A DNA stretch of 33,723 nt from Promethearchaeota archaeon. Its GTDB lineage: Archaea > Asgardarchaeota > Lokiarchaeia > Sigyniarchaeales > SOKP01. Under the pieces are notes generated by a model. It made no database searches. It was not told where the DNA came from and saw only the letters and a list, made by a program, of their open reading frames with translations. The stretch spans positions 1 to 33,723 of the forward strand of contig JBHLPN010000006.1 in assembly GCA_048939445.1 (NCBI GenBank), read 5' to 3'. The translations under genes and the position numbers were made by a program. Positions 976 to 25,753 of this stretch are shown one piece after another (within the stretch, counting starts at the first letter, position 1; each line of letters begins with the position of its first letter).

Positions 976-981
976 TATTAA

Positions 982-4386: not shown

Positions 4387-4441
4387 GATCTTAATTTTAT
4401 CATTTAGTTTTAATAATGTTTTCAAAATAAATCAAAAATTT

Positions 4442-6946: not shown

Positions 6947-6971
6947 GATTTTGAACCTTTTTTAACTTATA

Positions 6972-7020: not shown

Positions 7021-7131
7021 TTTTATTTAAAACAACTATAATTTTAAAACTTTAAATTATTTTTAATAATGTTTTTTCTCAAAATTAATATTTAAAAAAA
7101 AAATTAAAATTTAAAAATGAAAAGATATAAT

Positions 7132-7650: not shown

Positions 7651-7879
7651 TTTAACAATTATCTTCTTTCACCTTTTTTTATGATGTTTATTACTCTTAT
7701 CCTACTATATTATAATACATTATCTAAAAGATTAACTTATTAGAAATTTCCACTATTTTAAAAGTTTTAAGTTAATTTCTAAAAACAAAATAAGTTAAAA
7801 GCAATCATTAAAAAAAATAGAATATAAAAAAAATTATAGAATCTTTTAAAAAGTATTAATAGATTTAGTATGATTATCA

Positions 7880-8971
7880 TTGTATAAAGTTCTTGGAATT
7901 GACCCAGGATCGAAGAGTTGGGATTTCTTCGGTTTAGAAGATAATAAAGTAATTTTAGACACATCCTTACTTACTAAAGAGCTTATAAATGATCCGCAAA
8001 AAGCTATTACAATAATTAAAACTGTAAAGGATATTGATTTAATGGTTGCTCCTAGTGGGTTTGGACTTCCTTTAAAAGATGTGCATGAATTAACAGAACA
8101 AGATATTTTTTTCACTTTATTAAAATTTGATCAGAAAGAAAAAAATAAATTAGTTGGTCTGGGAGAGGTTTTAAGATTAATTAAAGCTCAAAAAATCCCA
8201 GGAATTATTGTCCCTGGAGTCAAGCATTTACCTACTGTTCCTAAATATCGAAAAATTAATAAAATTGATATGGGTACTGCAGATAAAATTTGCACTGCAG
8301 TTACAGGAATTAGAGACCAAATGGAAAGATTTAAAGTTGCTGCTGAAGATACAAATTTTATTATGGTAGAAATAGGTTATGGATTCACAGCGGTTTTGGC
8401 AATTGAAAATGGTCAAATTATTGATGGAATAGGAGGTTCAAATATTATGGGTTTTAGAGCATGTGGTGCTCTTGATGGGGAGCTAGCTTATCTTATCAAA
8501 AATATCCATAAGAAAAATATCTACAAAGGTGGAGTTGCCTATATTTCAGGATATTCCGATTTGAGCTTAAAAGAAATCACACTTCTAGCAGAGAAGGATG
8601 AACAGACTAAATTAGCTTTAAAAGCTTATTTATCAAGTGTGAAAAAAGCTGTTTTTGGAATATCGTCATCATTTTCATCTAAAGATAAAATAAAAGAAGT
8701 ATTATTAGCTGGGAGAGGAGCAAGTTTAACATATTTTCGAGAAAAAATGATACGTGGATTAAATGATGTTGCTCCAGTAAGAATCATGGCATCTTTTAGT
8801 CAAATAGCGAAACGAGCTGCTCAAGGGGCAGCTTTTATTGCTAATGGAATTTTAGGGGGAAATTTTGAGCCCATAATTAACAATTTAAAAATAAAAGAAG
8901 CTACTGGTTCAATATTAGATGATATTTTTATTCCATTCGAAAAAGAAAAGCTCATAAGTGATTTAGATTAA
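7880..8971 (+). CDS. DUF1464 family ASKHA-fold protein (butyrate-kinase-like)
   Basis: VLGIDPGSKSWD, APSGFGLP, PGVKHLPTVP, KINKIDMGTADK, EIGYGFT, GQIIDGIGG, AAQGAAFIANG. Confidence 0.8.
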   Translation: MYKVLGIDPGSKSWDFFGLEDNKVILDTSLLTKELINDPQKAITIIKTVKDIDLMVAPSGFGLPLKDVHELTEQDIFFTLLKFDQKEKNKLVGLGEVLRLIKAQKIPGIIVPGVKHLPTVPKYRKINKIDMGTADKICTAVTGIRDQMERFKVAAEDTNFIMVEIGYGFTAVLAIENGQIIDGIGGSNIMGFRACGALDGELAYLIKNIHKKNIYKGGVAYISGYSDLSLKEITLLAEKDEQTKLALKAYLSSVKKAVFGISSSFSSKDKIKEVLLAGRGASLTYFREKMIRGLNDVAPVRIMASFSQIAKRAAQGAAFIANGILGGNFEPIINNLKIKEATGSILDDIFIPFEKEKLISDLD

Positions 8972-10538
8972 AATACTTATAATTACTGGTCTAAAGAGTT
9001 ATAAAATAATAGAAAAGGTTATTAAACCTGTTAAAGAGCATAACATTACAGTAATAAAAGCGCCAATATCTATTTCTGCTTTTCTAACAGAACCTATGAC
9101 ATCTAAAATCTTAGAGCAGACAGAAATTTATAATTATGACATGATATTATTACCGGGTTTTGTACAATGGGATTCAAAAGATTTAGAAGATAAATACTCA
9201 ATAAAAGTTCGAAAAGGTCCAGAATTCGCATCTGATTTACCAGTCATTCTACAAAATTTAAAAATTATAGAATTATCAAATAAAACACCAGCAAATAGAT
9301 TACTAGAGATTTCAGGAGAAAGTCAATTTACTGAAATTGTAAATAAACAGCTAGAATCAGCCAAAAAAAATCTAGACTCTCATACATATTACCTTAATGA
9401 AAAAAAATCTAATATCATAATTGGAAGGAATTTACCACCCCCTATAATTGCCGAGATTGTAAACTGTACTGAAAAAAGTAATGAGAATATTCTAAAAAAA
9501 GTAAAGCATTACATCAATTCTGGTGCAGAGATAATAGATATTGGATGCGTCTCTAATAAGCCAAATCCAGAAAAAATTAAAGAAATAATCAAATTAATTA
9601 GATCCAACTATGATATCTTAATAAGTATAGATTCTATGGATTCCAAAGAGATAAATGCTGCTGTTGAAGAAGGAATTGATCTCATTCTAAGTCTAGATTT
9701 AGGTAACTATAAAGAATTTTTACATCTCCCTAAGACCACTCCTATTGTTATACTTCCTACTAATGTTAAGGAAGCATATTTTCCTAAAGATGCTGAAACT
9801 CGCGTTAAAAATTTATTTAAATTAACAAATGAATTACAAAATAATGGTTTTAAGAAGTTAATTGCTGATCCACTGCTGGAAACGCCAATTAGTCCTGGAA
9901 TATGCAATTCTTTAGAAGCTTATTTTTTGTATAAAAATAAGGTTTCAGAAGGGAAATATAAACATTTCGAACTCCCTCTATTTTTTGGAATATCAAATGT
10001 AGTTGAGCTTATGGATATTGATTCTGTTGGAATTAATGGACTGTTAGCAAGTATTGCAATTGAACTGGATATCGGGATTCTTTTTACCGTCGAACATAGC
10101 ACGAAACTAATGGGAGGAGTAAGAGAGTTGAAAGAAAGTATAAAATTAAATCATGTAGCGAAGTATAGGAAAACACCACCTATAAATCAAGGAATTTCAG
10201 TTTTTAGAGCTAAAGGAAAAGTAAATCAAGAATCACCAGATATCAATCAAAGTAATATAATAGCTGTACAGAAATTCCTTACTGATTATATTCCGGATGA
10301 TAAGGGATATTTTAGAATTTACACAAATCATTATTCAAAAAAAATTTACACTCTTTTTTTCTCTAATGATGATCAACTACTCCATACTTTCATTGGGGAC
10401 AATGCAGAAGCTTTAAGTAAAAAGATCATTCAGTCTAATTTAACTAAAGACGTATATCATTTGAATTATTTAGGAAGAGAATTAAAGAAAGCAGAACTTT
10501 ATTTAAATTTAGAAAAACCGTATATACAGGATGAATAA
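8967..10538 (+). CDS. dihydropteroate synthase-like pterin-binding protein with C-terminal DUF4346-like domain; probable ATT start
   Basis: The in-frame extension (I/M)KILIITG...APISISAFLT upstream of ATG 9096 matches the family N-terminus. Also DMILLPG, IIAEI, GAEIIDIG, SIDS, IADPLL, GISNVVELMDIDSVGINGLL, DDKGYFRI, HLNYLGRELKKAE...YIQDE. Confidence 0.82.
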   Translation: MKILIITGLKSYKIIEKVIKPVKEHNITVIKAPISISAFLTEPMTSKILEQTEIYNYDMILLPGFVQWDSKDLEDKYSIKVRKGPEFASDLPVILQNLKIIELSNKTPANRLLEISGESQFTEIVNKQLESAKKNLDSHTYYLNEKKSNIIIGRNLPPPIIAEIVNCTEKSNENILKKVKHYINSGAEIIDIGCVSNKPNPEKIKEIIKLIRSNYDILISIDSMDSKEINAAVEEGIDLILSLDLGNYKEFLHLPKTTPIVILPTNVKEAYFPKDAETRVKNLFKLTNELQNNGFKKLIADPLLETPISPGICNSLEAYFLYKNKVSEGKYKHFELPLFFGISNVVELMDIDSVGINGLLASIAIELDIGILFTVEHSTKLMGGVRELKESIKLNHVAKYRKTPPINQGISVFRAKGKVNQESPDINQSNIIAVQKFLTDYIPDDKGYFRIYTNHYSKKIYTLFFSNDDQLLHTFIGDNAEALSKKIIQSNLTKDVYHLNYLGRELKKAELYLNLEKPYIQDE

Positions 10539-10640
10539 ATCAATAAAATAAATTAATGATTAGCTTAAGTAATTGGTTGAAATTTATATAATTATTAAAC
10601 TTATCTAATATGTTTCCATTAATCAAACTCTCTTAAAAGT

Positions 10641-12506
10641 GTGAATTTTATGATACCAAAAAAAATGGAATCTTTTCTTCATGAACACCTCCCAGATGCT
10701 ACCCTCAAAACCCGACTTAAAAAAGATAAGGGAAAATGCTATTTAGAGTTTCGTAATGTAGATGAGCATCTATTATCTCGACTTGGGATTGTTGTTGATA
10801 AATTAGGCCCTCATCTTGTAGTTTGTTTATGGGATGAATCATCCGAGTTGGAAATTGGTGGATATTTAGTAGTTGATAACCTGTCCATGGGGGCTCCGTC
10901 AATGGGAGGGATTAGAATGCTCCCTGATATAACACCTTCAGATATTCATAATTTAGCTAGAGGTATGACCCTTAAAAACGCAGCTGCTAATCTTCCATAT
11001 GGTGGAGGTAAATCAGGGATTGTTGCTGACAGAAATATCTCACCTGAAGATCATAATAAAGTAATCCGTGGTTTTGCACGATTAATTCATAGCTATATCG
11101 ACATCTATTTGCCTGGACCTGATGTGGGTACTAACGATGCTGATATGAAGACTATAGCTATAGAAAATGGATTAGATAACGCACTTTCTAAGCCTGTTGA
11201 GATGGGAGGAATGCGCATAGATGAATTGGGGGCAGCTGCTGGTGGGGTTGTGATCGCTTTGCAAACTCTATTGGATATAATGCCGAGATTGAGAGTTCTT
11301 TCCCAATTTGCTAATCTTGAGATTCCAGAAACTAAAGATCTTAAAATTTTGATTCAAGGTTTTGGAGCTGTTGGTGCTCATGTTGCACGTATATTATATG
11401 AAAGAATCCCTGATGCCAAAGTAATAGGTATAAGTGATTTAGAGGGTTATTTATATAATGAATCTGGCTTACCAATTCAAGAACTTTTTAAAATATGGGA
11501 AGAAAAACGCTTAGTTACTAATAATTATTTTAAAGAGGAGATTTTTTCAGAAGGGTATAAACACCCTACGAAATTTTCTACAAATAGAAATAATTTACTT
11601 CTGGAAAATGCTTTTTGTTTGGTTCCTGCAGCTCCAGTATTTAACTATTTAGGAGTGCGTACTTCTGAAAATCCATCTATAACAGTGGATCGTATGGGAA
11701 AATGGGGAGTGATTGTTGAAGGGGCAAATACATATTCTCCTGATCCTAATAGAAAGGCGGCACGTACTCGTATGGAGCAAATTGTGTATAGAGAGAAGGG
11801 AGTAATGATAGCTAATGATTATTTAGTAAATTCTGGAGGTGTAATTTTTGCTGCTCAAGAGCACATAATTAAATCTCCAGATAGATTACAAATACCTGAA
11901 GAAATGTTAGGAAATCGTGATGTGGTAGAAAAATGGTTGAAAGATCACTCTAAAGAATTTACAGAGCTTTCAAGACAGCGATTAAAAGCAGGAGAGGAAT
12001 ATAGAGAAGATGTAATTCATCATAACATGATTGAATTAGTTGATTTATTAGCGACGCACCCTGATATGCTTCCATGCATGGCAGCTGAACGTATCAGTCT
12101 TCAACGTTTAACTGATAAGGAAAGCGAACTTACAGCAAAAGATATTATGATTTCAATACCAACAATTGACGTAAAAAGTTTAGTCCAAGACGCAGCTGCT
12201 TTAATGATTGAAAAAAAAAGTGGGATAATTGCTGTACTTTCAGAAAACAGACTTGTAGGAGTTGTTACAGATTGGGATATCACTGCTGCAGTTGCTTCTA
12301 ATCGTTGTGACGTTAATCTTGATAAAATTATGACAAAAGACGTTATTATAGCCTCTCCAGATTTTTCTATTTTAGATATTATTCGAGAACTAGAGCAATA
12401 TCAAATATCTGCAATGCCTGTAGTTGAACAGGGAAAAGTTTTAGGTATGGTTAATTCAGATCTAATAGCACAACGCTATATTTTAGAATATTTACAATCT
12501 CAATAA
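10641..12506 (+). CDS. Glu/Leu/Phe/Val dehydrogenase fused to a C-terminal CBS pair (start may be ATG 10650)
   Basis: GGIRM, GMTLKNAAANLPYGGGKSGI, GPDVGT, QGFGAVG, VEGAN, DYLVNSGGV; the last ~125 aa contain LVGVVTDWD and ISAMPVV...GKVLGMV CBS motifs. Confidence 0.85.
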   Translation: MNFMIPKKMESFLHEHLPDATLKTRLKKDKGKCYLEFRNVDEHLLSRLGIVVDKLGPHLVVCLWDESSELEIGGYLVVDNLSMGAPSMGGIRMLPDITPSDIHNLARGMTLKNAAANLPYGGGKSGIVADRNISPEDHNKVIRGFARLIHSYIDIYLPGPDVGTNDADMKTIAIENGLDNALSKPVEMGGMRIDELGAAAGGVVIALQTLLDIMPRLRVLSQFANLEIPETKDLKILIQGFGAVGAHVARILYERIPDAKVIGISDLEGYLYNESGLPIQELFKIWEEKRLVTNNYFKEEIFSEGYKHPTKFSTNRNNLLLENAFCLVPAAPVFNYLGVRTSENPSITVDRMGKWGVIVEGANTYSPDPNRKAARTRMEQIVYREKGVMIANDYLVNSGGVIFAAQEHIIKSPDRLQIPEEMLGNRDVVEKWLKDHSKEFTELSRQRLKAGEEYREDVIHHNMIELVDLLATHPDMLPCMAAERISLQRLTDKESELTAKDIMISIPTIDVKSLVQDAAALMIEKKSGIIAVLSENRLVGVVTDWDITAAVASNRCDVNLDKIMTKDVIIASPDFSILDIIRELEQYQISAMPVVEQGKVLGMVNSDLIAQRYILEYLQSQ

Positions 12507-12509
12507 TAT

Positions 12510-13640
12510 TTAATAATATCTTAATATATTATATAAAGTATCTCTTTGAGCGGGTTTCTTTCCAGCAGCTTTAATTATTGTAATAATTTCTTCTGCCGAT
12601 AAATATTGACCAAATTCTGCTCCAGCACTTCTGGATATATTTTCTTCCATTAAAGTTCCAGAGAAATCGTTTACACCGAAATTTAAAGACACTTGAGCAA
12701 GTTTTGGACCCAATTTCACCCAACTACATTGTATATTATCAATATAATTATTTAAAAATATCCGAGATACACAAAACAATTTTAAATCCGCTATACCATA
12801 ACTAGGATTCAAAGGATGTTTATCTAATCTTGATAATATAGGATTTTCTTTTACAAAAGGCAAAGGCACAAATTCAGTGAATCCTTTGGTTTCTTTTTGA
12901 ATTTCTCTTAAGACTTCTAAATGTGTTATTCGATCATTTAAAGATTCTATGTGTCCATACATGATAGTTGAAGTCGTTGGGATACCTAAATTATGAGCTG
13001 TAGTGATTATATCAATCCATTGCGATGTAGAGACTTTATTTGGACATATAATTCTTCGTATATCATCAACCAGAATCTCTGCTGCTGTTCCTGGAATGGA
13101 GTCTAATCCAGCCTTTTTTAATATTTTTAATGTGTTTTCTATTGAACTCTTATATAATTTTGACATAAAATAGATTTCTTGAGGAGAAAAAGCATGAGTA
13201 TGAATGTTTTGATCTATTCCTTTTACAAGTCGAAGAATATCTAAATAAAAATCAAATTTTAATTCAGGATTGATTCCCCCTTGAATACATACTTCTGAAC
13301 AATCTGAATTTTTTGCTTCAATAACTCTATCCTTAATCTCCTCTAATGTAAGTGTGAATGCATCTTTATGATTAGATGGCAAGCTAAAAGAACAGAATTT
13401 GCATCCTTGAAAGCACACATTAGTAAAATTTATATTTCGATTAATTACAAAAGTTACGACTTCTTTTTTTTTTTCAAAACAAATTTGATTAGCAACAAAT
13501 TGTAGAGCAAAAAATTCTTTACCATCTACTTTTAATAATTTTAAAGCTTCCTTTGAGGTAATTTCCTCATTTTTTAATGCTTTTTCTAAAATACCCTTTA
13601 TTTCTGGTTTTAGCTGGTTTAAGAAATGAGAATTTAACAT
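12510..13640 (-). CDS. cofH: FO synthase subunit CofH (radical SAM)
   Basis: TFVINRNINFTNVCFQGCKFCSF, CIQGG, HAFSPQE, PGTAAEIL, EFVPLPF, NIQCSWVKLG, GTLMEENISRSAG; TAATG-coupled to cofG. Confidence 0.9.
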   Translation of the reverse strand: MLNSHFLNQLKPEIKGILEKALKNEEITSKEALKLLKVDGKEFFALQFVANQICFEKKKEVVTFVINRNINFTNVCFQGCKFCSFSLPSNHKDAFTLTLEEIKDRVIEAKNSDCSEVCIQGGINPELKFDFYLDILRLVKGIDQNIHTHAFSPQEIYFMSKLYKSSIENTLKILKKAGLDSIPGTAAEILVDDIRRIICPNKVSTSQWIDIITTAHNLGIPTTSTIMYGHIESLNDRITHLEVLREIQKETKGFTEFVPLPFVKENPILSRLDKHPLNPSYGIADLKLFCVSRIFLNNYIDNIQCSWVKLGPKLAQVSLNFGVNDFSGTLMEENISRSAGAEFGQYLSAEEIITIIKAAGKKPAQRDTLYNILRYY

Positions 13641-14743
13641 TAATAATTTATATTATCTATAATTTTTTTAATATTTTCTGGACAGTAATCACTTTTTTGG
13701 ATGTATTTATTATAGATTGGAAGTCTTTCTTTGAGTTTATAGCCTTTAGCCTCACAAATTTTATTTAAATCATCAATTTGAGGCCACATATTTTCAGGAT
13801 TTATATAATCTAATGTAATAGGTGATATTCCCCCAAAATCGTCAATCCCCATATCGATAAACTCTTTTTCAAAACCTATTATAAGATTTGGGGGTGCTTG
13901 AATAGCAATTTCATTCTCAAATATAATACGAGCAATTCCGGATATTTTGAGCATTTCTTCGATAGTAATTGGTTTTTTAGGTTGAAATGGAATATTTTCT
14001 TTATTCACAAAATTCTGAATGATAACCTCTTGAATATGCCCATATTCCTCATGGATTTTTTTAATTAAATATATATCTCTTATGATATCTTCTATAGTTT
14101 CTCCAATACCTATTAATAAGCCTGTAGTAAATGGAATTTTTAATTTTCCAGCATTATTAATGTGCTTTAATCTTTTTGTTGGTAATTTTCCAGGAGAATG
14201 TTCATGTGCTTTCCCTTTTTTAAAAAGTTCCATACTTGTACTTTCAAGCATCAATCCCATACTTGCATTATATCTTTTTAATTCCTTCATTTCATCATAA
14301 GTCAAAAATCCTATATTTGTATGAGGTAGAATATTAAAATTAAGTAAATTTATACAAATCTCTTTTACAAATGCTATGAAGTCTGAATAATTCCTTTTTT
14401 TTAACTCATTTTTGACATCAGGAAGTCTTTCTGGACGTTCTCCAGACATTAGGAGAGCTTCTTTGCAGTTATATTGAAGACCTTTTTGAATTAATGTATG
14501 AATTTGCTCATTACTAAGCAAGATTACGTTACCCTCACCACTTGGTTTAGGGATTTTATAATTATAAAAACAATATCCACATTGATTAATACAATAGTTC
14601 GAAAGAGAAAGTGTAAAATTCTTGGAATAAGTTATTATGTTTTTTTCATTAGTCGGTAATTGCTCCTTTATTTTTTTAACTCTTCCTCTTATTTCTTTCA
14701 ATGTAAGCTTTTTAAAGCTTTCAATTTCGTTATTTTTTATCAT
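13640..14743 (-). CDS. cofG: FO synthase subunit CofG (radical SAM)
   Basis: ITYSKN...CINQCGYC, LPHTN, NASMGLMLES, PFTTGLLIGIGE, GHIQEVIIQNF, QAPPNL, DFGGISPITLDYINPE. Confidence 0.92.
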   Translation of the reverse strand: MIKNNEIESFKKLTLKEIRGRVKKIKEQLPTNEKNIITYSKNFTLSLSNYCINQCGYCFYNYKIPKPSGEGNVILLSNEQIHTLIQKGLQYNCKEALLMSGERPERLPDVKNELKKRNYSDFIAFVKEICINLLNFNILPHTNIGFLTYDEMKELKRYNASMGLMLESTSMELFKKGKAHEHSPGKLPTKRLKHINNAGKLKIPFTTGLLIGIGETIEDIIRDIYLIKKIHEEYGHIQEVIIQNFVNKENIPFQPKKPITIEEMLKISGIARIIFENEIAIQAPPNLIIGFEKEFIDMGIDDFGGISPITLDYINPENMWPQIDDLNKICEAKGYKLKERLPIYNKYIQKSDYCPENIKKIIDNINY

Positions 14744-14745
14744 TA

Positions 14746-15411
14746 TTAGTCCTTTTTGTATTTTAACACCACATAATTATCCCTACTTAAGATTTCAAGC
14801 AATTTAAACCTTGGTGCTTGAGCCATAGTTTCAAATCCTTTACCTTCAACAAGGGTAATTGCATCTTGACCACCAATTACCCATGGAGCAATGGTTAGCC
14901 TTATTTCATCTACTAAATTCATCTTAATAAAGCTCCAGTTCAATGTGCCACCCCCCTCTAATAAGAGCTTTTGAATCCCTACATTATAAAGAAGTGGCAT
15001 AAGATTCGATAAATTTACTTTCTTACCTTTACCAGCTTTTAATATCTTCACTCCTTTTGACTCAAAATCTTTGATTTTTTTCAATATTACATTTTCCGTG
15101 GTACATATTATCGTAGGATATGTTTGTGGCCGAAATGTAATTACTTTTGAATTAATAGGTATCGAAAGATTACTATCTACAACAATTCTATAATACCCCT
15201 TATGGTTATAAAATTTAATGTGAAGTTTAGGATTATCTTTCAATATAGTGTTTTTCCCCACGATAATACCATCCACTTGAGCCCTAAGTTTATGGACTTC
15301 TTTCCAATCTTCTCCATCAGACAACTCTGGATCTCCTGTTTTGGATGCTATCTTTCCATCAATAGTCATTGCAGCACTTAAAATGATATATGGGCGTTCA
15401 ATTTCTTTCAA
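14746..15411 (-). CDS. arfC: 2,5-diamino-6-ribosylamino-4(3H)-pyrimidinone 5'-phosphate reductase (stand-alone RibD C-terminal domain)
   Basis: RPYIILSAAMTIDGKIA, VHKLRA, GKNTILKDNP, LLLEGGGTLNWS, VDEIRLTIAP; no deaminase domain. Confidence 0.85.
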   Translation of the reverse strand: MKEIERPYIILSAAMTIDGKIASKTGDPELSDGEDWKEVHKLRAQVDGIIVGKNTILKDNPKLHIKFYNHKGYYRIVVDSNLSIPINSKVITFRPQTYPTIICTTENVILKKIKDFESKGVKILKAGKGKKVNLSNLMPLLYNVGIQKLLLEGGGTLNWSFIKMNLVDEIRLTIAPWVIGGQDAITLVEGKGFETMAQAPRFKLLEILSRDNYVVLKYKKD

Positions 15412-16567
15412 ATACTAACTCTCCTTTGATATAAGTTTTTTTAATATTTTCTGATTTTGTTCTTTGAGTAATTAAATCTAATATATTATTAGAGTTTAAT
15501 TTATAAGAAAATAGATTTGGATCATAAAGATTAATTAAAAAGAAGTCAGCAAATTTTCCCTTTGAAATCGAGCCAAACTCATTTTCAAGATTAAAACTTT
15601 TTGCAGCATTAATAGTAACCATTTTCAATAAATCCTTAGAAGTGAATTTAAGCTCTTCATCATAACTGCATAAAACTCTTGAAATTCGGTAAAAATATCG
15701 TATCTCTTCAAATAAATCAGTATTATTCACCATTAAATTGTCTGTACCTAATGATATTGGAATCTTTAATCTTAAAATTTCGCTAATGGGAGGAAAACCC
15801 AACCCAAAATATCCATTACAACGAGGACATAAAACAAGAGATTTATTATTTTTAATTATTTTTTCTAAATCTTTTGAAACAAATTTTGTCCCATGAATGA
15901 TTACATCAATAAAATTATCATTAAACATTTCATTTATTAAATTAATATTACGAGTTTTCTCAGCACAGTGACATGCAACGATTTTTTTAAATTTATATTT
16001 AGCTGATACAATTAATTTTTTATTTGTTGAATTAATTTGTTTGTAACTGGATAATCCGACGCCATCTGCTAAATCGAAAATAGATTCTATTTCACTTTCA
16101 TCCATAAATCGCCCTAGGATTAAACTATTAATTGAATTATCAGTAAGCGCCTTTTTTAGAAGATTTACCCCTTCAATCCCTCCCTCTCGAAAATCAATGA
16201 AAAATGTAATACCATTTGATAGCATTTCTAAAACTGCATTTTGAATTCCTTTAATTTTGATATTTTCAGGGATTTGCCTTAATAATTTATGCTTAAGACC
16301 AAATGGAGGAGCAACGATCTCTGATATTTCTTTATTAAAACCCAATTCTTTAGCAAAACTATCCCCGATATGAACATGCGCGTTTATAAATCCCGGAATT
16401 AATAAGAAATTCTGATAATTCGGGAGAATTTCTAAATCTTTAGCGACATCTTCATATGAGATATCCATAATTTTTCCAGTGTGATCAATTTCTAAATTTA
16501 CATTCTGTTTTAAGTGTAAATTATCTCCAATTAGAGCATATTTACTAAATAAAGATTTATTAGCCAT
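15398..16567 (-). CDS. metal-dependent amidohydrolase/deaminase (TIM barrel)
   Basis: PGFINAHVHIGDS (HxH), HCAE, IIHGT, LCPRCN, LGTDN, GKFADF; overlaps the arfC start by 14 nt. Confidence 0.85.
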   Translation of the reverse strand: MANKSLFSKYALIGDNLHLKQNVNLEIDHTGKIMDISYEDVAKDLEILPNYQNFLLIPGFINAHVHIGDSFAKELGFNKEISEIVAPPFGLKHKLLRQIPENIKIKGIQNAVLEMLSNGITFFIDFREGGIEGVNLLKKALTDNSINSLILGRFMDESEIESIFDLADGVGLSSYKQINSTNKKLIVSAKYKFKKIVACHCAEKTRNINLINEMFNDNFIDVIIHGTKFVSKDLEKIIKNNKSLVLCPRCNGYFGLGFPPISEILRLKIPISLGTDNLMVNNTDLFEEIRYFYRISRVLCSYDEELKFTSKDLLKMVTINAAKSFNLENEFGSISKGKFADFFLINLYDPNLFSYKLNSNNILDLITQRTKSENIKKTYIKGELVFERN

Positions 16568-16600
16568 TAATTCATAAACATTGTAAATTATTTTGTATTA

Positions 16601-16647
16601 ATTATATCGAATCCTTTTAAATTATATCTAATCCTTTTAAAGATTAG
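16601..16647. repeat. 20-bp tandem duplication plus palindrome in the divergent amidohydrolase/mptA promoter region
   Basis: ATTATATCGAATCCTTTTAA at 16601-16620 and ATTATATCTAATCCTTTTAA at 16621-16640 (1 mismatch); CTAATC-N8-GATTAG at 16628-16647. Confidence 0.8.
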
Positions 16648-16681
16648 GAAAAAAATCAATTTTTGTTACTGGTGACTATTA

Positions 16682-17653
16682 ATTACCAAATTTAAAACAG
16701 ATTTACAAGATTCTGGTTCCGGCATAGATATTCCAATAGATAAGGTTGGTATTGTAGAATTGGAAAAAAAAGTTGAAATAGTTCAAGAGAATAAAAGATA
16801 TTCTTTTTATCCCAAAATATCAGCGTTAATCAATCTTCCTGCTGACCAGCGTGGAATACATATGTCTCGAACTTCGGAGACTATAGAAGAAGTTATTAAT
16901 GAAGTAATTTTCAAACCAACCCCAACTATTGAACTTGTTGGAGATAGAATTGTAAAAAAATTAATGAAACGCCATCCATATACATCTAAAGCTGAAGTGA
17001 AATTAGAAGGTAAAATTGTAGTACAAGTTAGAGAAAATGATGAAAGAATTATTCAAAAATCATACAATATTAGTTCTTTTGTAACAGCTAGCAGAGACGA
17101 TACTGGAAATATCGATTATAATTATTTTATAGGGGCTAGTGCAGTTGGTATGACTGTGTGTCCTTGCGCTAAAGAACTTTCTTTGGAGTATGCAGAAGAA
17201 GTTGTTAAATCCAGAAAAGATATTAAAGTTTCCGAAGAAGATCTCAATAAGTTGCTTAATTTACTCCCCTTTTCTTCACATAATCAAAGATCTATCGGGA
17301 CTATAATTATTCAAATAAAGGATCTAACTAATCATAAAATAGACGTTTTAGATATAATTGATGTAATAGAGCAATCCATGAGTGGTAAAATTCAATCTGT
17401 TTTAAAAAGGCCCGAAGAAGCCGAATTAGTAAGAAGTGCACATCTAAAACCCCTTTTTTCTGAAGATGTAATAAGAGAAATGGCAAAAAATTTCATTTTA
17501 AGGGACTTTCCAAATCTGGAAGATAATTTTAAAGTAAAATTCCAGATTCAATCTTTTGAAAGCATACATCCCCATGATGTATTCGCGCAATTGAAAACAA
17601 CTGTTGGAGATCTACGGCAACAATTAAAGGGTATTATCTCTCGTAGCAATTGA
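16682..17653 (+). CDS. mptA: GTP cyclohydrolase MptA/FolE2 family; probable ATT start
   Basis: QRGIHMSR, GMTVCPCA, SHNQRS, LKRPEE, PLFSEDVIR, ESIHPHD. The conserved N-terminal DLQD...IPIDKVGI lies in frame upstream of TTG 16760. GGTGA sits 6 nt before ATT 16682. Confidence 0.88.
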   Translation: MTKFKTDLQDSGSGIDIPIDKVGIVELEKKVEIVQENKRYSFYPKISALINLPADQRGIHMSRTSETIEEVINEVIFKPTPTIELVGDRIVKKLMKRHPYTSKAEVKLEGKIVVQVRENDERIIQKSYNISSFVTASRDDTGNIDYNYFIGASAVGMTVCPCAKELSLEYAEEVVKSRKDIKVSEEDLNKLLNLLPFSSHNQRSIGTIIIQIKDLTNHKIDVLDIIDVIEQSMSGKIQSVLKRPEEAELVRSAHLKPLFSEDVIREMAKNFILRDFPNLEDNFKVKFQIQSFESIHPHDVFAQLKTTVGDLRQQLKGIISRSN

Positions 17654-17785: not shown

Positions 17786-18991
17786 TTATCTTATCCTTAA
17801 AATACCCTTATAAATTAATACATAATTCTTTACACCTATAATCTTAGGATTTCTCCTATAACTTAAAGGGATAGGAGCATTACATCGAGAACAAAGACCA
17901 GAGGTTCTAAGCCAATCTTTAAATTCGTCTGCGTGAGCTGGATATCTGCAATTCGGACATAAAACTATTCCTCTGCCATTATCTCTAGGATATTCTGGTA
18001 ATTTGAAACAAAAAATACATTTAAAATCTTCTAACGACAAATTTGCAGCCTTTGGCCTATACAATTTTAAATTTATGCGCTTTACGGTGCTCTGACTCCT
18101 TCTAACTGGTTTAGTTGTTCTACTCGTGCGTGTAGTACGAGAAGTCGTTTTAACTCGAGAACTTTTGGATTGAACACGCCCAGTAGGCGTTGATCTTGAT
18201 GATTGAGAAATTGTTCTTGAAGTTCGAGTTTCTGTTCTAGTTGATGGTGTTGGAGATGATCTTGATCTAGTTGTAGTACGGGTACTTTGTCTCCTAGGAG
18301 TTGTATTTCTTGTTGGTGCTGTTAATTGGTTTAATCTCCTTGTACGTCTTGTTATGTAGTCTCTAGTTAATTGAGGTAATTGCGATCTAGTTCCAAATAA
18401 TCCAGGTACAATCAATATGAGTATAGTACTGATAAGTAATATCAAAAGATTAAGATCTATTAAAAAATGTAAAGGTATTAATAAAGTCCCATAGAAATCT
18501 ACAAGTGAATAAAAACTAATCCAATAAATAATTATGAAAAAAAGAATTGAGGTACTTAAAATATAACCAAAAATACGTGCTTTAACTGACTTTGTCCCAA
18601 AATAAATTACATTATATTTTTTAAAACAATAATATAAAGAAATTGAACCATATAATATATAGGGAAATCCGAATAGAAGACTCCACAAGCTTAAATATAA
18701 ACCTGTACCTTCCAGAAGATTTTCTCCTAATAAACCGGTAAAATTACCCCAAATTGAATAAAAAATTCCCATAAAAACAGGACCAATTGTAAAAAAAGCA
18801 GTATTGTGAGGAGAATTAAATTCACGATATTGTTTAATGTTTTTTATAACTTTAAAAGAAAATATCAACCAGATTCCAATTAATATCCAACTTACAAATA
18901 CATTGAAAGAATTTATAATAGCCCCATGGATTATACCAATTACCAAAAATATTGCCAATGTAATAACGACAGATTTAATTTTAGCCTTAAT
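17786..18991 (-). CDS. multi-pass membrane protein (~6 TM) with an S/T/R-rich linker and C-terminal RING-like zinc finger; putative E3 ligase (ORF-track start 18958, probable ATT start 18991)
   Basis: About six hydrophobic segments, then a low-complexity linker, then CxxC-x16-CxxC-x4-H-xx-E-xxx-W-x6-CxxC; last gene of the Ubl-E1-E2-JAMM run. Confidence 0.72.
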   Translation of the reverse strand: MKAKIKSVVITLAIFLVIGIIHGAIINSFNVFVSWILIGIWLIFSFKVIKNIKQYREFNSPHNTAFFTIGPVFMGIFYSIWGNFTGLLGENLLEGTGLYLSLWSLLFGFPYILYGSISLYYCFKKYNVIYFGTKSVKARIFGYILSTSILFFIIIYWISFYSLVDFYGTLLIPLHFLIDLNLLILLISTILILIVPGLFGTRSQLPQLTRDYITRRTRRLNQLTAPTRNTTPRRQSTRTTTRSRSSPTPSTRTETRTSRTISQSSRSTPTGRVQSKSSRVKTTSRTTRTSRTTKPVRRSQSTVKRINLKLYRPKAANLSLEDFKCIFCFKLPEYPRDNGRGIVLCPNCRYPAHADEFKDWLRTSGLCSRCNAPIPLSYRRNPKIIGVKNYVLIYKGILRIR

Positions 18992-19016
18992 TAAAACTCA
19001 CCCTGCTTCTTATGTT

Positions 19017-19829
19017 TTAATCTTCATCATATTCAAGGTATACTGCTTTCCCTTCTATTATAGGATTTATAAATTTTAAAATTTCCGGTAGCATTTGTAC
19101 ATCTAATGATCCTTTAATCCCATATACCAATGGATACCACGTTCTAGATTTAAAATCTGCCTTATATATTTCAAATCCAGTAGATTTACCATCAATTTGA
19201 TAAGGATCGATAACAAGGGCAACAGCTTTATCCCAAAGCTTTTGATATCTTGCTTGAGTTCCCATATCTTCATTAGACATAAAGCATCCATATGATGGGT
19301 GTGAATGATACCAACCACAAATGAATAATTTCTGTCTTTTGATATCTTTAAAGGCTTTCACATAATTTTTATAATCTTTGATTTCTGCATAAACTGCTGT
19401 GCCGTGCCCCATTGGATAAGAATCTTCAATATGTAGTATATTATTTTTATCTATTTTTCCTGCAAGAAGCCCTATGACCTCCACCCATCTTTCTCTTGGA
19501 ATCTTAGAATTAGCATATTTAAGTGCATGACTCGCTATTTTAAGAATCGCTTTTACTGAAATATAAATTTCTTTTTCTATTTCTTCTTCTTTGAAAATTT
19601 CCGCTTCTCTTTTTTCTACAATATTAGTTGTAGGTATCTTTGTAAGTTTTATAATTGGTTTAGCAGACGATTTTTTTGTAAGCATTGAAGAGATTTCTTC
19701 TGTTAATTCATCTTCTTCTAACTGAAGTTCTTCATATATTTCGTCTATTAATTCTTGCTTTATTTTTGCTTTTATCTTCCTTTTAATTACATCTTTAATT
19801 GAATTATTATTAACATCTTTATTTTCCAT
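19017..19829 (-). CDS. JAB1/MPN+ (JAMM) metalloisopeptidase, Rpn11/CSN5-like, with a charged N-terminal extension
   Basis: EVIGLL...GWYHSHPSYGCFMSNED.TQ..YQ...AVALVIDP is an intact JAMM motif. ATG 19829 follows a GGTGA that overlaps the E2 stop codon. Confidence 0.9.
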   Translation of the reverse strand: MENKDVNNNSIKDVIKRKIKAKIKQELIDEIYEELQLEEDELTEEISSMLTKKSSAKPIIKLTKIPTTNIVEKREAEIFKEEEIEKEIYISVKAILKIASHALKYANSKIPRERWVEVIGLLAGKIDKNNILHIEDSYPMGHGTAVYAEIKDYKNYVKAFKDIKRQKLFICGWYHSHPSYGCFMSNEDMGTQARYQKLWDKAVALVIDPYQIDGKSTGFEIYKADFKSRTWYPLVYGIKGSLDVQMLPEILKFINPIIEGKAVYLEYDED

Positions 19830-19836
19830 TAAGGAA

Positions 19837-20364
19837 TCACCATTTTTTATTTGCATATTTCTTAACAAGATTTTTAACTTTTTTCTCGAAAAATTTTGGA
19901 TTTTTCATCATTTCTATCGCTGCTTTTTTATTAAAAACATCAGTTGGATTTACATATTTACCACGTGTATTTAACATAGCAATTATTGCTTGAACAACAG
20001 TAACCGCTGTTTTTGAGGGACTCCATCCTCCTCGTTTACCGACTAATGAGGGATCTACTAATGCTAGACATATATTTCTCTGTCCCTTATATTCAGATGG
20101 TTTTGGCCAGAAATTTGGATGCCAAATTGGAGTATGCATTCTTACGAAAGGAGGTTGTTTGGGATATTGAGCAGGAAATCTCATTTCTAATCTAAAAAGA
20201 CCACCTGCATAAACAGTCCCTTTAGGTCCTTTAAAAGAGATTGCTAAATGATCAATACTTTTTCTTTTTGGATTAAATGGTTTTAATTGAACTATACTTC
20301 CCTCTTTAACCATCTTTTTTAATCCTGCAAAATCTCGGGAAATACGACTACTTCTTATACTCAT
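19837..20364 (-). CDS. ubiquitin-conjugating enzyme E2 (UBC fold)
   Basis: GPKGTVYAGGLF...FPAQYPKQPP...TPIWHPN...NIC (catalytic Cys)...WSP...NKKAA. Confidence 0.93.
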   Translation of the reverse strand: MSIRSSRISRDFAGLKKMVKEGSIVQLKPFNPKRKSIDHLAISFKGPKGTVYAGGLFRLEMRFPAQYPKQPPFVRMHTPIWHPNFWPKPSEYKGQRNICLALVDPSLVGKRGGWSPSKTAVTVVQAIIAMLNTRGKYVNPTDVFNKKAAIEMMKNPKFFEKKVKNLVKKYANKKW

Positions 20365-20444: not shown

Positions 20445-21704
20445 TTAAAACCTTTTCTGATTCAAATTTTGCTTTATTTTTAATGTTACAAAAATTTCTC
20501 CACCTTTAAACCCAGCAGCTGTCATAAGTTCGTAATTTCTTAAGTCATTTTCAATAGGATTCTTTTCTAAATCAACGATCTTTATATCATTGAAATCTTG
20601 TAAAGTGAGAATTGGCTCAGAATCTGGATCCATTTTATATCCATTTTTCTTTAGTATTTTAATTATATTCATGCAAGGTGATTGGGATCTCATTTTTATA
20701 GATACTCGTCGCACTTTTTTGCCGCATTGAGAACATTCTGAATTTCTATGCTTTTCAATATGATAAAATTTCATTGTAATTGCATTATAGATTACGTAAT
20801 TTCTTATAGGTTCGCCTAATCCTTTATGACCCTTTTTCCAATGAAGGATTTTTATTGTTTCATGTGATTGTAATGCTGAAATAACTGCGTTTATAGTAAT
20901 TATACCAGGATCGTGCCTATCAAGGATTTTAACAATATCATCTTCAGTATAATCAGGTAAGAAATTGTGTTTATATACTAGTTCATTAGCAATATCTTTG
21001 ATGAATTTAATATCATTAACGTTTTTTGGATTTGGATCTCTATTAAATTTTTCTTTAAATGCCATATCTCCTTTAAAAACGCAATGTATCCTTTTTCGAG
21101 GGATTCCTACCACTGTGCAAGCAGCCATCTCATCACTCTCTCCTACGGGTAACGGATTACATTCATAACAAGCATTTTTATAGGGAAATACTGTGTACAC
21201 ATGACCATGATAACCAGAAACTCCTCCGTCTACTAATGGTTTTTTAAATCTTATACACTGTGCGTTCAAGTTTAAACGTGCATTCATCGAATCAAGACCT
21301 CCAACAACAACATCAGCAGCTTGATATAATGCTGGATTCAATCGTTCTAAAGAAGTATAATATCCTTTAACAATAATATTTGGATTAATTTCCTTTAGTT
21401 TTCTGGCAGCAACAATCGCCTTTGGCTCTCCTATATTCGCTCCAGCAAAAAGAATTTGACGGTTCAAATTAGAATGTTCAATGATATCTAAATCAATAAG
21501 ATCTAAACGACCAACGCCAAGCATGGCTAAATTTTTAGCAATTTCGCAACCTAAACCTCCAACTCCAATTATTACTACTCTTGAGTTCTTTACTAATTTC
21601 TGAGACCAACCCTCCAAACGAAATTGACGGTCATACAAGTTTCTCTCTTCCACTGATAAATCTTTTGTAAAAAAATCTGAATCCTTATCCAATATTATCA
21701 CCAT
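20445..21704 (-). CDS. ubiquitin-like activating enzyme E1, Uba2/Uba3-type architecture
   Basis: YDRQ, GVGGLGCE, DLDIIEHSNLNRQ, CYEC, catalytic-Cys loop ACTVVGIPRKRIHC, PGIITINAVIS, CSQC, and an ~80-aa C-terminal extension (probable UFD). Alternative start TTG 21692. Confidence 0.92.
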   Translation of the reverse strand: MVIILDKDSDFFTKDLSVEERNLYDRQFRLEGWSQKLVKNSRVVIIGVGGLGCEIAKNLAMLGVGRLDLIDLDIIEHSNLNRQILFAGANIGEPKAIVAARKLKEINPNIIVKGYYTSLERLNPALYQAADVVVGGLDSMNARLNLNAQCIRFKKPLVDGGVSGYHGHVYTVFPYKNACYECNPLPVGESDEMAACTVVGIPRKRIHCVFKGDMAFKEKFNRDPNPKNVNDIKFIKDIANELVYKHNFLPDYTEDDIVKILDRHDPGIITINAVISALQSHETIKILHWKKGHKGLGEPIRNYVIYNAITMKFYHIEKHRNSECSQCGKKVRRVSIKMRSQSPCMNIIKILKKNGYKMDPDSEPILTLQDFNDIKIVDLEKNPIENDLRNYELMTAAGFKGGEIFVTLKIKQNLNQKRF

Positions 21705-21715
21705 AAATATTAATT

Positions 21716-21750
21716 AAAAAAATAAAAAAAAATAAAGGGCTTAACGCCCT
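21716..21750 (-). terminator. hairpin + U-tract between the Ubl and E1 genes
   Basis: Minus strand reads AGGGC-GTTAA-GCCCT followed by TTATTTTTTTTTATTTTTTT, starting 34 nt after the Ubl stop. Confidence 0.55.
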
Positions 21751-21783
21751 CATATTATAATTTATGAAGAAAGTTTTATAAGT

Positions 21784-23145: not shown

Positions 23146-23940
23146 ATGAGAAAAAATTCTAGAATTTTGAGTGTTATCACTCTTTACGTTATCTGTATTT
23201 TGTGTTATATGTTTTATTTCCTATTTCATATAGAAAATACTCCTCTATTTCTTGTTCTAACTATTGGGAGTGTTGCTGTTTTATCCACTAGTACAATTTA
23301 TACAGTTATACAGTCTAAAAGTAGTCTAGATAAGAAAATACAAAAAAAAAAATACATAACAAAACCAAAATCAATTCAAAAAGACACTATTAATATCCTT
23401 GAAGATTATATTGATGCTATGCCTTCAATAGAAGAATATATTGAGTCAGATGAATCCTATAAGGATATGCCAATAATTGATAAATATATTTTTTCAATAT
23501 TTAGCAAGGAAGAATTAGCTAAAATTGATCTCTTAGAATTACCAAAAATGGATAAGATATTATTTATCAGAGAAATGCTATATTACGATCCAAATGAAAG
23601 AAAGGATTTAATTGAAAATATGTTGAAAAACAAGGATAATATTAATGGTGAGATAATATATTCATCCCCTATAAGCTCAATTAAAATGGAAGACCAGATT
23701 CGAGTTTATGTAAGATCATTAGTTGAGCCTGGTGAGAAAACGAAAATAATCATTGTTGATACAACTGAATTAATTAGGATAATTAAGGAAAAAATAGCAA
23801 TATTATTTGATTATGAGTTAGAAGATTTTCTCTTATCTAGCGGAGGAATATTGTTAAAAGAGCATTCACTAATAGGAGAATATGATATCGATGATGATGA
23901 TGAAATTGCTTTAATCCCCTCAAGAAAAGAAAGAAAATAA
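23146..23940 (+). CDS. membrane-anchored protein (2 N-terminal TM) with a C-terminal ubiquitin-like domain paralogous to the free Ubls
   Basis: Two hydrophobic segments. The last ~80 aa align without gaps to Ubl1 (PGEK, IKE, DF, SSGG, YDI, LIP; 29/74 identical by hand count). Ends SRKERK with no Gly. Confidence 0.8.
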   Translation: MRKNSRILSVITLYVICILCYMFYFLFHIENTPLFLVLTIGSVAVLSTSTIYTVIQSKSSLDKKIQKKKYITKPKSIQKDTINILEDYIDAMPSIEEYIESDESYKDMPIIDKYIFSIFSKEELAKIDLLELPKMDKILFIREMLYYDPNERKDLIENMLKNKDNINGEIIYSSPISSIKMEDQIRVYVRSLVEPGEKTKIIIVDTTELIRIIKEKIAILFDYELEDFLLSSGGILLKEHSLIGEYDIDDDDEIALIPSRKERK

Positions 23941-23958: not shown

Positions 23959-24387
23959 TTAACCAGCTATACTTGCTGGAATTAGAAGTATGTCATCCCC
24001 ATCAGAAACATTAAAATCTCTTAATATACTATTTTCATCCATTGTTACACCACCAGACGATAAGTAAAAATCAGCAGGATCCAAACCAAACAAATTTGCT
24101 ACAGTTTCTTTAATCTCACCAACTAGATTGCCATCATTAATGGTTAATTTTTGTTTTTTCTCACCTGGGCCAATAGTAGACATGAAATATACTGAAATCT
24201 TTTTCCCTCCATGAATGATCTTTTTAGAAGGTGTTTTGGATTCAACTTCCTTCTTTTCTATCTCTGTAAAAGGTTCTTCGATATCTTCTTCCATGTCTTC
24301 TTCTATTTCTTCATCTAGATCTTCTAAATCTTCATCAAATTCTTGCTCATCAAATTCTTGCTCATCAAATTCATCATCAAAGCCCAT
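23959..24387 (-). CDS. ubiquitin-like modifier 2 with a long acidic N-terminal tail, C-terminus -IAG
   Basis: 61/82 identical to Ubl1 over the core by hand count; residues 1-50 are Asp/Glu-rich. Confidence 0.88.
   Translation of the reverse strand: MGFDDEFDEQEFDEQEFDEDLEDLDEEIEEDMEEDIEEPFTEIEKKEVESKTPSKKIIHGGKKISVYFMSTIGPGEKKQKLTINDGNLVGEIKETVANLFGLDPADFYLSSGGVTMDENSILRDFNVSDGDDILLIPASIAG
24332..24372. repeat. 15-bp coding tandem repeat (EFDEQ units) in the Ubl2 tail
   Basis: TCATCAAATTCTTGC twice plus a partial third copy. Confidence 0.75.
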
Positions 24388-24571: not shown

Positions 24572-25753
24572 ATGAATGACAAACCTATTCCCAAATATCA
24601 AATTCGAGAAAAGACACCAGATGAAGAACTTGATACATTTCCAGATAAAAAATTACTGAAGAAAATAAAAAAAGAAAGAATCAAGTTAGATAAAGAAAAA
24701 AATGAATGGGAAAAAACGATCAATCAAATTGAAAAATACAAAGAAAATGTTGAAGATCTCGAAAAGAAAAGAAAAGAAAAAGAACTTAAAATTAAATTTC
24801 TTCTTGAACAACGAGATAACTTAAAAAATGAGTTAGATAGAACTAAAAATCAAATAGAACAACAAAAGCAAGATTTAGCAGCTAAAGATCGTCAATTTAG
24901 AGAAAAAATCAGGAGTAAGAATGAAGAATTAGATCAAAAAAATGCTGAATTACATAGATTTCAAGAAAAATTAGATAATTTAAGAGAGGATATTGCAAAT
25001 CAAAAGAAGAATTTAGAATGGGAAAAAGAAAGAACAGAAAAACGAATAAAGGAAATTAAAACGAAGATTCCGGGTATGGAAAGAAGAGAAAATGCTTTAG
25101 AAAGAACTATTAATGAATTAGAAAAAAAGTTAATGGATTTAAGAAATGAAATTAAAGATTTAACTAAAGAAAGAGATAACTTAAATAGGGAAATTAATAA
25201 TCTAAGGAGAGAGATTATTGATGAGAAAAATCGAATTTCTGATGAAAAGCAAAAACTTAAAGAAGAAAGAGAAAAAATTCGTTATAAAAAACAAGATGTA
25301 AATCTAAAGTCTCGTGAACTTGATAAAAAAAGAGCAGATCTAAAAAAGTATAAAGATAAACTAGCAAATGATGTAAATAATTTAGAAAAAAGAAGACGAC
25401 AACAGGAAATGAGATTAAAAGACTTAGAAAGAAAAGTTCCTGCTACAGAAAATAAATATAATTCCTTAAGTCGTAAAATTCCAAATTTAGAAGAAAAATT
25501 TAAAAAAATAAATAATGAATTTAGACAATTAGAAAAAGAAAAAACAAACTTAGATAGAGAAAAAAATCTTATTAAGCGTGAAAGAGAAAAATTAGAAAAG
25601 GATAAACAAAGATTTATAAAGGAAAAAAGAGAATTTGAAAGAGAACTAAGAAAGATTAAAACTAAAACTCCCTCAATTGAAACAAAGACTCCTTCGCAAA
25701 TTAAAACAAAAACTCCTTCGCAAATTAAAACAAAAACTCCTTCAAAATATTAA
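24572..25753 (+). CDS. long coiled-coil protein with an internal ~120-aa repeat and a C-terminal KTPS repeat tail
   Basis: About 330 aa of E/K/R/L-rich heptads with very few Pro/Gly; no P-loop or globular domain visible. Confidence 0.8.
   Translation: MNDKPIPKYQIREKTPDEELDTFPDKKLLKKIKKERIKLDKEKNEWEKTINQIEKYKENVEDLEKKRKEKELKIKFLLEQRDNLKNELDRTKNQIEQQKQDLAAKDRQFREKIRSKNEELDQKNAELHRFQEKLDNLREDIANQKKNLEWEKERTEKRIKEIKTKIPGMERRENALERTINELEKKLMDLRNEIKDLTKERDNLNREINNLRREIIDEKNRISDEKQKLKEEREKIRYKKQDVNLKSRELDKKRADLKKYKDKLANDVNNLEKRRRQQEMRLKDLERKVPATENKYNSLSRKIPNLEEKFKKINNEFRQLEKEKTNLDREKNLIKREREKLEKDKQRFIKEKREFERELRKIKTKTPSIETKTPSQIKTKTPSQIKTKTPSKY
25655..25744 (+). repeat. 21-24 bp coding tandem repeat encoding (Q)I[KE]TKTPS x4
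   Basis: CAAATTAAAACAAAAACTCCTTC[G/A] at 25697-25720 and 25721-25744, with two more diverged copies upstream. Confidence 0.85.

Follow-up and report, generated by a model that had tools for sequence, protein, structure and literature searches.

The question raised by this locus is whether the last gene of a ubiquitin operon from an Asgard archaeon encodes a membrane-bound ubiquitin ligase (E3) whose RING finger carries a glutamate in place of a cysteine or histidine zinc ligand. The window analyzed is a stretch of 33,723 nt from a Promethearchaeota archaeon (Lokiarchaeia, Sigyniarchaeales, SOKP01; NCBI assembly GCA_048939445.1, contig JBHLPN010000006.1, positions 1 to 33,723 of the forward strand). 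The gene, here called the TM-RING gene after its predicted transmembrane (TM) helices and its C-terminal finger, follows genes for a ubiquitin-like protein (Ubl), an E1-like activating enzyme, an E2 conjugating enzyme and a JAB/MPN isopeptidase (JAB). Being the last gene of a ubiquitin operon and encoding a six-helix anchor together with a predicted cytosolic RING, it probably specifies a membrane-bound ubiquitin ligase. The complete reading, i.e. a membrane-anchored RING-type E3 of the Asgard Ubl-E1-E2-JAB operon which has a Cys2-His-Glu site and binds the operon E2, is favored here with rather better than even confidence.

The C-terminal domain contains the motif C314-x2-C317-x16-C334-x2-C337-x4-H342-x2-E345-x3-W349-x6-C356-x2-C359, in sequence form CIFC-x16-CPNC-x4-H-x2-E-x3-W-x6-CSRC. 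A RING-like finger with seven canonical ligands and a Trp had been proposed here by an earlier inspection of the letters alone (the sequence-only reading), and the motif was found to map exactly to 17882-18019. None of the nine motif residues varied, either among the 26 close members or among the 60 members taken from 50%-identity clusters. Since, in addition, 402 homologues were retrieved at E ≤ 1e-3, the motif is not a product of chance. The homologues are labeled at their sources as hypothetical proteins only (Promethearchaeota, Lokiarchaeota and other Asgard metagenome-assembled genomes). The canonical RING pattern C-x2-C-x(9-39)-C-x(1-3)-[CH]-x(2-5)-[CH]-x2-[CH]-x(4-48)-C-x2-C is matched at 7 of 8 ligands; the spacings x16, x2, x4, x2 and x10 are all allowed for a RING, and the sixth ligand is Glu345. 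The gap of four residues between ligands 4 and 5 is RING-C2-like and unlike canonical RING-H2; RING-C2 domains also have 4-5 residues there according to the available part of a plant RING catalogue (PMC6118397).

Relatives of the domain were collected by an exhaustive phmmer search using the last 95 residues as query, which gave 121 cluster representatives, most of them 370-420 amino acids (AA) long and carrying the domain C-terminally. The remotest matches have the same spacing with H-x2-H replacing H-x2-E. Among these H-x2-H relatives, P0229 (28.6 bits), P0232 (30.3 bits), P0240 (29.1 bits) and P0237 (49.6 bits) lie above the Pfam gathering score for zf-RING_2, and two of them also exceed the gathering score for Prok-RING_1. 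When the domain of the E-type family was aligned to the H-x2-H relatives using hhalign, a probability of 98.4% and an E-value of 6.5e-15 over 64 columns were obtained, the E being aligned to the H. By these profile comparisons the domain is a RING homologue at the superfamily level.

A model of the domain was computed with AlphaFold2 (AF2) from a 36-sequence alignment and reached a predicted local distance difference test score (pLDDT) of 96.6 and a predicted template modeling score of 0.86. A RING/U-box fold is made up of a beta-hairpin and a central helix placed between two pairs of ligands; in the model, strands span 36-38 and 45-47, and residues 48-55 form a helix (domain numbering). In Foldseek, RING/U-box E3 domains occupied 47 of the best 50 rows and the other 3 were RING-like domains of IFT-A and GATOR2. 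VIA-wide, which is independent of Foldseek and covered 48,161 chains, returned RING/U-box domains in 50 of the best 50 rows, with 3lrq_A (Z 7.7, 74 aligned), Ring1b (Z 7.2) and RNF4 (Z 6.2, root-mean-square deviation 2.7) as best matches. The profile search of the PDB placed RNF24 first (E 0.0019), followed weakly by FANCL, synoviolin (E 0.021), RNF165, RNF4, EL5 and AMFR (E 0.36); a PHD-containing chain, 2l43_A, appeared at E 0.32. No PHD, LIM or FYVE finger was present among the best 50 rows of either Foldseek or VIA-wide. A PHD, LIM or other non-RING finger was the outcome which the sequence-only reading had named as speaking against itself, and the rows listed by the fold searches are RING/U-box or RING-like domains instead. 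The model therefore supports a RING/U-box fold for the finger.

The glutamate at position 6 had been noticed before, and the orthologue alignment shows how strictly it is kept: E345 is conserved in 60/60 cluster representatives and 26/26 close members, just as the Cys and His ligands are. A regular expression for the motif gave 119 matches, of which 2 were spurious; of the remaining 117 genuine instances, 99 have E at position 6 and 16 have H, with D and A seen once each. Where one protein has several such fingers, E, D and H are mixed among the repeats. The same genome encodes four further RING proteins above the Pfam zf-RING_2 cut-off (open frames of 198, 114, 696 and 188 AA on contigs C144, C379, C358 and C158), three of which have the spacing CxxC-x4-H-x2-[C/H] with C, C and H at position 6. 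The sister RINGs thus carry H, C or D where this family has Glu. Because H, C, D and E interchange at a known ligand position and the other three ligands of this site are retained, the first zinc site is best read, from the alignments, as Cys2-His-Glu. In a related population two nearby differences were found, both of them synonymous (codons of H342 and A341). The neighboring D344 was considered as ligand in place of E345; since no more than 63 of the 119 matches have D there, D344 is variable and was rejected as ligand.

Several observations weigh against the favored reading. Pfam found no family at E ≤ 0.1 on the whole TM-RING protein, and for the domain alone zf-RING_16 reached E 0.14, its 12.3 bits falling short of the cut-off of 27.4, while Prok-RING_1 reached E 0.4; distant E-type members score higher but remain below threshold (P0212, Prok-RING_1 E 8.4e-5). 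The scores of the fold searches are modest as well, the best Foldseek E-value being 2.3e-3 and VIA-wide giving no match of the domain at Z ≥ 8. Such scores would be expected for a fold of 60 residues, and it is the uniformity of the match lists which should carry weight. Glutamate is unusual as a ligand in structural zinc sites, and one family representative (P0135) has Ala at position 6. Finally, the RING-domain tree (60 columns) is too short to tell whether the E type had a single origin: a quick tree grouped 97 E-type rows with a Shimodaira-Hasegawa-like approximate likelihood ratio support of 88, whereas a careful tree gave a polytomy.

Of the alternatives, the one that survives best keeps the E3 function and assumes a degenerate first site, and it is regarded as unlikely. 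E345 would then not sit on zinc and would form hydrogen bonds or a salt bridge instead, as a step toward a single-zinc finger resembling the U-box or SP-RING, or the site would consist of Cys2-His plus water. The presence of U-box domains among the best structural matches (3lrq, LubX, CHIP, Prp19) fits this alternative, as do the member with Ala at position 6 and the zinc domain of IFT144, which keeps the E and is without the His; site-1 ligands are often lost in protocoatomer RING-like domains, as described in the accessible portion of PMC4678705. Yet C314, C317 and H342 are invariant in 60/60 members, which is hard to explain without a metal at site 1, and the interchange of E, H, D and C among paralogues is what a ligand position should show.

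In RING E3s such as c-Cbl and RNF4, the E2 is contacted by a hydrophobic residue before ligand 2 and by a Trp three residues past ligand 6. Both are recognizable in the TM-RING family. Position 316 is F in 72% of the members and the other variants are hydrophobic except for two His, and W349, whose role as E2-contacting Trp the sequence-only reading had suggested, is found in 60/60 members and in 114 of the 119 motif matches. A predicted complex of the E2, two zinc ions and the RING domain scored 0.08, 0.48 and 0.21; the median of 0.21 lies under the mark of 0.32, and these scores, obtained without controls, carry no weight either way on E2 binding.

The gene is also tied to the ubiquitin system by its genomic neighborhood. 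For 20 loci picked to span 10 Asgard families, the JAB gene lies directly upstream of the TM-RING gene in 20/20. The E2 is present in 19/20, the remaining contig ending before the E2, and the full order Ubl-E1-E2-JAB-TMRING is preserved in 16/20, with 2 loci cut by contig ends and 2 rearranged. Besides the TM-RING gene, the operon has no E3 candidate. Of 301 genomes sampled from the phylum, 139 gave a TM-RING match at E ≤ 1e-5, the weakest of these matches being RING-only and perhaps other RING proteins. By family, the numbers are 59/68 (f1), 26/28 (f7), 18/21 (f24) and 0/76 (f9). The 9 of 68 genomes of family f1 without a TM-RING gene are exactly the 9 having only a distant E2 paralogue and not the operon E2.

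It is on these data that a second alternative has to be judged, in which the protein is a non-catalytic membrane scaffold or receptor. Its finger would dock the Ubl or JAB or would oligomerize, as the C-terminal RING-like domains of IFT-A, GATOR2 and HOPS do, and it would not stimulate discharge of the E2. The best single-sequence match in the PDB is indeed the C-terminal zinc domain of IFT144: the query from positions 17789-18073 matched 8bda_I, 8bbf_A and 8fgw_C with an E-value of 2e-4 for the single sequence and 0.0015-0.013 for profiles, values which are marginal for Cys-rich sequences. IFT-A and GATOR2 chains are among the fold matches, and the helices flanking the finger resemble those of dimerizing RINGs (TRIM, Rad18, CHIP) in the VIA-wide list. 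A scaffold, however, would leave unexplained the conservation of the E2-contact Trp and of the hydrophobic position 316, the tie of the gene to the E2 and not to the Ubl alone, and an operon with no other E3 candidate; we consider this alternative improbable.

The membrane part of the protein was predicted from hydropathy and from AF2, which agree on six helices at residues 2-15, 18-44, 50-76, 89-114, 127-153 and 161-188 (AF2 pLDDT 55-85 over the anchor helices). Lys plus Arg number 3, 5 and 46 on the segments predicted to lie inside; each of the three outside loops has 0. According to the positive-inside distribution, both termini and the RING should therefore be located in the cytosol. The approximately six TM helices and the cytosolic RING of the sequence-only reading are both borne out by these predictions. 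The architecture of the anchor is kept across the family and its sequence almost not: among 60 family members, only F56 and P99 are conserved to ≥ 80%. The full-length AF2 model is of low confidence (pLDDT 57) and had no Foldseek match at E ≤ 1e-3. VIA-wide found only generic helical bundles for residues 42-194 and no ligase of endoplasmic-reticulum-associated degradation (ERAD) among the matches listed, the best match of the TM part being cytochrome b561 (Z 9.0), which is under the noise level of the tool for helical proteins. As a query for sequence searches, the TM part gave no usable match. Because the sequence is barely conserved, the model poor and the structural matches generic, the bundle is tentatively read as an anchor or scaffold. 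That the protein is a true homologue of Hrd1/gp78 with the TM bundle as retrotranslocation channel is very improbable, for the shared domain order and the weak profile matches to the RINGs of synoviolin and AMFR are outweighed by the generic bundles in place of an ERAD ligase among the matches listed for the low-confidence model, by the barely conserved TM sequence and by a RING spacing and ligand set unlike C3H2C3.

Between anchor and RING lies a linker of 110 residues containing 27 T, 24 R and 18 S, with a net charge of +27 and 4 S/T-P sites, counts which agree with the T/S/R-rich linker described in the sequence-only reading. The linker is basic in every one of the 63 full-length members, with a median net charge of +19 (lowest value +8) over a median length of 105 AA; it is kept in composition, not in sequence. 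A sub-threshold NCBIfam match to AuxB on the linker (19 bits against a cut-off of 300) falls in this low-complexity region and was regarded as compositional. Across loci, the operon Ubls begin with an acidic Phe-containing N-tail (MSFDEFDEEL..., FDEEFDEEL-like), followed by SKTP/KTP and the core STIGPGEKK. The complementary charges would be consistent with a basic tether that captures the acidic tail of the operon Ubl, which the sequence-only reading had proposed together with a possible phospho-regulation of the linker; the support for these ideas is correlative. The tether could equally serve to bind acidic lipids or simply to provide reach.

The analysis shows the fold, the RING homology, a conserved Glu at a ligand position, the predicted topology and the operon linkage with co-occurrence; zinc binding by the Glu, E2 binding, ligase activity and membrane-proximal substrates are inferred from there, and a mechanism may be outlined as follows. 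The six TM helices would anchor the protein in the cytoplasmic membrane so that N- and C-terminus both face the cytosol, and the disordered basic tether of about 110 AA would bear the cytosolic RING. The second zinc site would be formed by four cysteines (C334, C337, C356 and C359), and the first by C314, C317 and H342 together with the carboxylate of E345, as a derivative of a Cys2-His-His/Cys site. F316, which is hydrophobic and precedes C317, and W349 would be the residues by which the RING contacts the Ubl-charged operon E2; the RING would then promote transfer of the Ubl onto lysines of proteins located at the membrane or close to it. Processing or removal of the Ubl would fall to the JAB enzyme.

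The start codon of the TM-RING gene is probably a near-cognate one. The TTG at 18958 (minus strand) used by gene callers yields a protein of 390 AA, to which the residue numbers given here refer, and the frame is open further upstream to an in-frame stop at 18998-19000. An in-frame ATT at 18989-18991, where the sequence-only reading had placed the start (18991), brings back the N-terminal K-x-K-I-K motif of the orthologues. These open with ATG/GTG-[AVP]-K-x-K about 10 nt past a GGTGA; the succession of GGTGA, ATG/GTG and [AVP]-K-x-K was found at 24 of 29 other orthologous loci, while one locus (L029) has an ATG start without GGTGA and at another (L009) the letters just upstream are a stretch of N. 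The ATT of the window lies 6 nt past agGGTGA with the same conserved residues in frame (18956-19003, minus strand). In the window and at three loci of the same genus (L003, L007 and L010), the conserved K-x-K-I-K codons are in frame but have nothing better before them than ATT (window) or ATA/ACG or GTA/ACG (the other loci); L007 is also without the TTG used by gene callers. Contigs from three other samples carry the same ATT. A search for sequencing runs listed none of RNA covering the locus. The window is AT-rich with a GC content of about 30%. On comparison of these loci, the ATT is the probable true start.

Table 1. Position of the TM-RING gene, its parts and the genes of the ubiquitin operon in the window.
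Feature	Coordinates	Strand	Basis or remark
TM-RING gene	17786..18991	minus	stop 17786-17788; called start TTG 18958, probable start ATT 18989-18991
C-terminal RING-type domain with flanking helices, residues 301-390	17789..18058	minus	AF2, Foldseek, VIA-wide, hhalign
Glu345 codon GAA	17924..17926	minus	zinc-ligand position 6
Disordered basic T/S/R-rich tether, residues 191-300	18059..18388	minus	composition; AF2 pLDDT <50 at 208-294
Six-helix membrane anchor, residues 1-190	18389..18958	minus	hydropathy, charge counts, AF2; predicted N-in/C-in
JAB/MPN (Rpn11-like) isopeptidase, directly upstream of TM-RING gene	19017..19868	minus	Pfam JAB E 1.2e-17
E2, UBC fold, HPN motif, Cys99	19837..20364	minus	Pfam UQ_con E 1.1e-24
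E1-like ThiF-family adenylyltransferase	20445..21704	minus	Pfam ThiF E 2.3e-59; NCBIfam Ube1 subfamily E 2.9e-34, below cut-off
Operon Ubl, 109 AA	21784..22113	minus	Pfam ubiquitin E 1.7e-7; acidic N-tail, SKTP/KTP, C-terminus ...IPASTAG

The TM-RING protein is single-copy in its genome. The C-terminus of the operon Ubls reads IP[AV]STAG, i.e. Thr-Ala-Gly and not Gly-Gly, with 1-4 extra residues in some. A Ubl paralogue of 142 AA with an acidic tail of about 45 AA is encoded at 23959-24387 (minus strand), and a second E2 paralogue, 41% identical, is found outside the operon in the same genome (contig C14:19821-20282). Between the Ubl gene and the E1 gene lies a terminator-like GC hairpin followed by a T-run (21735-21751, minus strand), which could uncouple the expression levels of the Ubl and the enzymes; 2 terminator-like sites were found in the region against 2.3 expected, so that the hairpin may be due to chance. 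On the plus strand, 23146-23940 encodes a protein of 264 AA with N-terminal hydrophobic helices and a C-terminal ubiquitin-fold domain lacking a terminal Gly (it ends in ...SRKERK), and this gene adjoins the operon in at least one other genus (L032, 2047-2814). A membrane protein with a Ubl domain beside a membrane RING recalls Herp/Usa1 of the Hrd1 complex. A coiled-coil protein of 393 AA (24572-25753, plus strand) with weak sub-threshold Pfam matches to APG6_N and ERM-helical is a recurrent neighbor, turning up close to the operon at 8 of the 20 loci. Within 61-17653, further genes specify pterin/methanopterin-type cofactor enzymes (MptA GTP cyclohydrolase at 16760-17653, dihydroneopterin aldolase at 982-1368, CofH-like radical SAM proteins and RibD_C) and a PFL-like glycyl-radical enzyme with its activase (3385-6946); FtsZ is encoded at 28697-29842. 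The cofactor, glycyl-radical and FtsZ genes have no evident link to the ubiquitin genes.

Asgard ubiquitin operons serve as models for the origin of eukaryotic ubiquitylation, and a conserved membrane protein as operon E3 would point to the membrane as the site where the system acts. The domain of 95 AA is expressible and offers a test bed for a carboxylate as zinc ligand of a RING; the strict Glu where paralogues have His or Cys constitutes a clean natural experiment on RING metal sites. A bolder picture can be drawn, which we judge unlikely to hold as a whole: a dedicated polytopic E3 with an uncatalogued Cys2-His-Glu or 'RING-E' site, whose conserved basic tether pairs electrostatically with the conserved acidic N-tail of the Ubl, would organize eukaryote-like ubiquitylation at the membrane for quality control or sorting of membrane proteins, and no prokaryotic relative of the RING-like domains that end IFT-A and other protocoatomer proteins would be closer than its RING type, CPxC-[YF]-PA-H-x2-[EH].

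Among known systems, Hrd1/synoviolin and gp78/AMFR resemble the TM-RING protein in that a cytosolic RING stands behind a multi-pass membrane domain at the N-terminus, and by analogy the protein probably works like them as a membrane-resident E3. Of the match to Hrd1/gp78 drawn in the sequence-only reading, the domain order stands; homology of the TM bundles is not supported by the generic bundle matches listed and the low conservation. Differences are that no TM homology was detected among the VIA-wide matches listed, that the similarity of the RINGs is weak and that the ligand pattern is another one. To our knowledge, a long basic tether is not a defining feature of Hrd1/gp78 ligases either.

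The IFT144/WDR19 C-terminal zinc domain, the best PDB sequence match (8bda_I), shares the pattern CPxC-[FY]-PA...[EQ]-Phi...CPxC. Mammalian WDR19 keeps the Glu, and IFT144 has S or L in place of the His and is without the Trp. The finger of IFT144 stands at the end of a beta-propeller/solenoid protein as a structural module, and we know of no E3 activity of this domain. The match offers a clue to where the RING-like domains of protocoatomer proteins came from.

For a RING fold with substituted or missing ligands, RING-D, RING-S/T and RING-G of plants as well as U-box and SP-RING are precedents. The plant RING catalogue lists the ligand substitutions C>H, D, S, T and G and, in its available part, names no Glu type (PMC6118397), whereas the Glu is fixed here across a widespread family. 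Closer in sequence are the soluble Asgard and prokaryotic RINGs of zf-RING_2 (PF13639) and Prok-RING_1 (PF14446), which have identical spacing, the CPxC, x4 before the His, Phi-x2-W and x6 before the last CxxC. They differ in having His or Cys at ligand 6, and two that were checked (P0221 and P0231) are without a TM anchor.

That Asgard ubiquitin operons encode RING E3s is known in outline from the accessible parts of PMC6043591 and PMC5654768. In the literature searched (PMC5654768, PMC6043591, bioRxiv 10.1101/2023.07.25.550441, PMC11188069, PMC11354881 and PMC13328587, as far as accessible and supplements aside), neither a polytopic membrane RING nor a conserved basic tether nor a RING with Glu was found described for Asgard operons, and an earlier mention elsewhere is possible. 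The only archaeal E3 tested biochemically in the accessible parts of this literature is a small soluble RING, namely the operon RING srfp of Caldiarchaeum subterraneum, whose E3 activity was demonstrated and whose RING contains an extra Cys at ligands 3/4 (C3B; Hennell James et al. 2017, PMC5654768). Compared by description and not by alignment, srfp and the TM-RING protein are both encoded with ubiquitin, E1, E2 and an Rpn11-like JAB; the additional Cys (CPNC here) is common to both, as is the conserved Trp. However, srfp is small and of the RING-H2 type (C3H2C3), and the available text of PMC5654768 does not mention a transmembrane part, whereas the TM-RING protein comprises 390 AA with six TM helices, a basic tether of 110 AA and Glu at ligand 6. 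Set against the literature searched, what is new is a probable membrane-anchored, Glu-bearing form of an already known archaeal operon RING E3.

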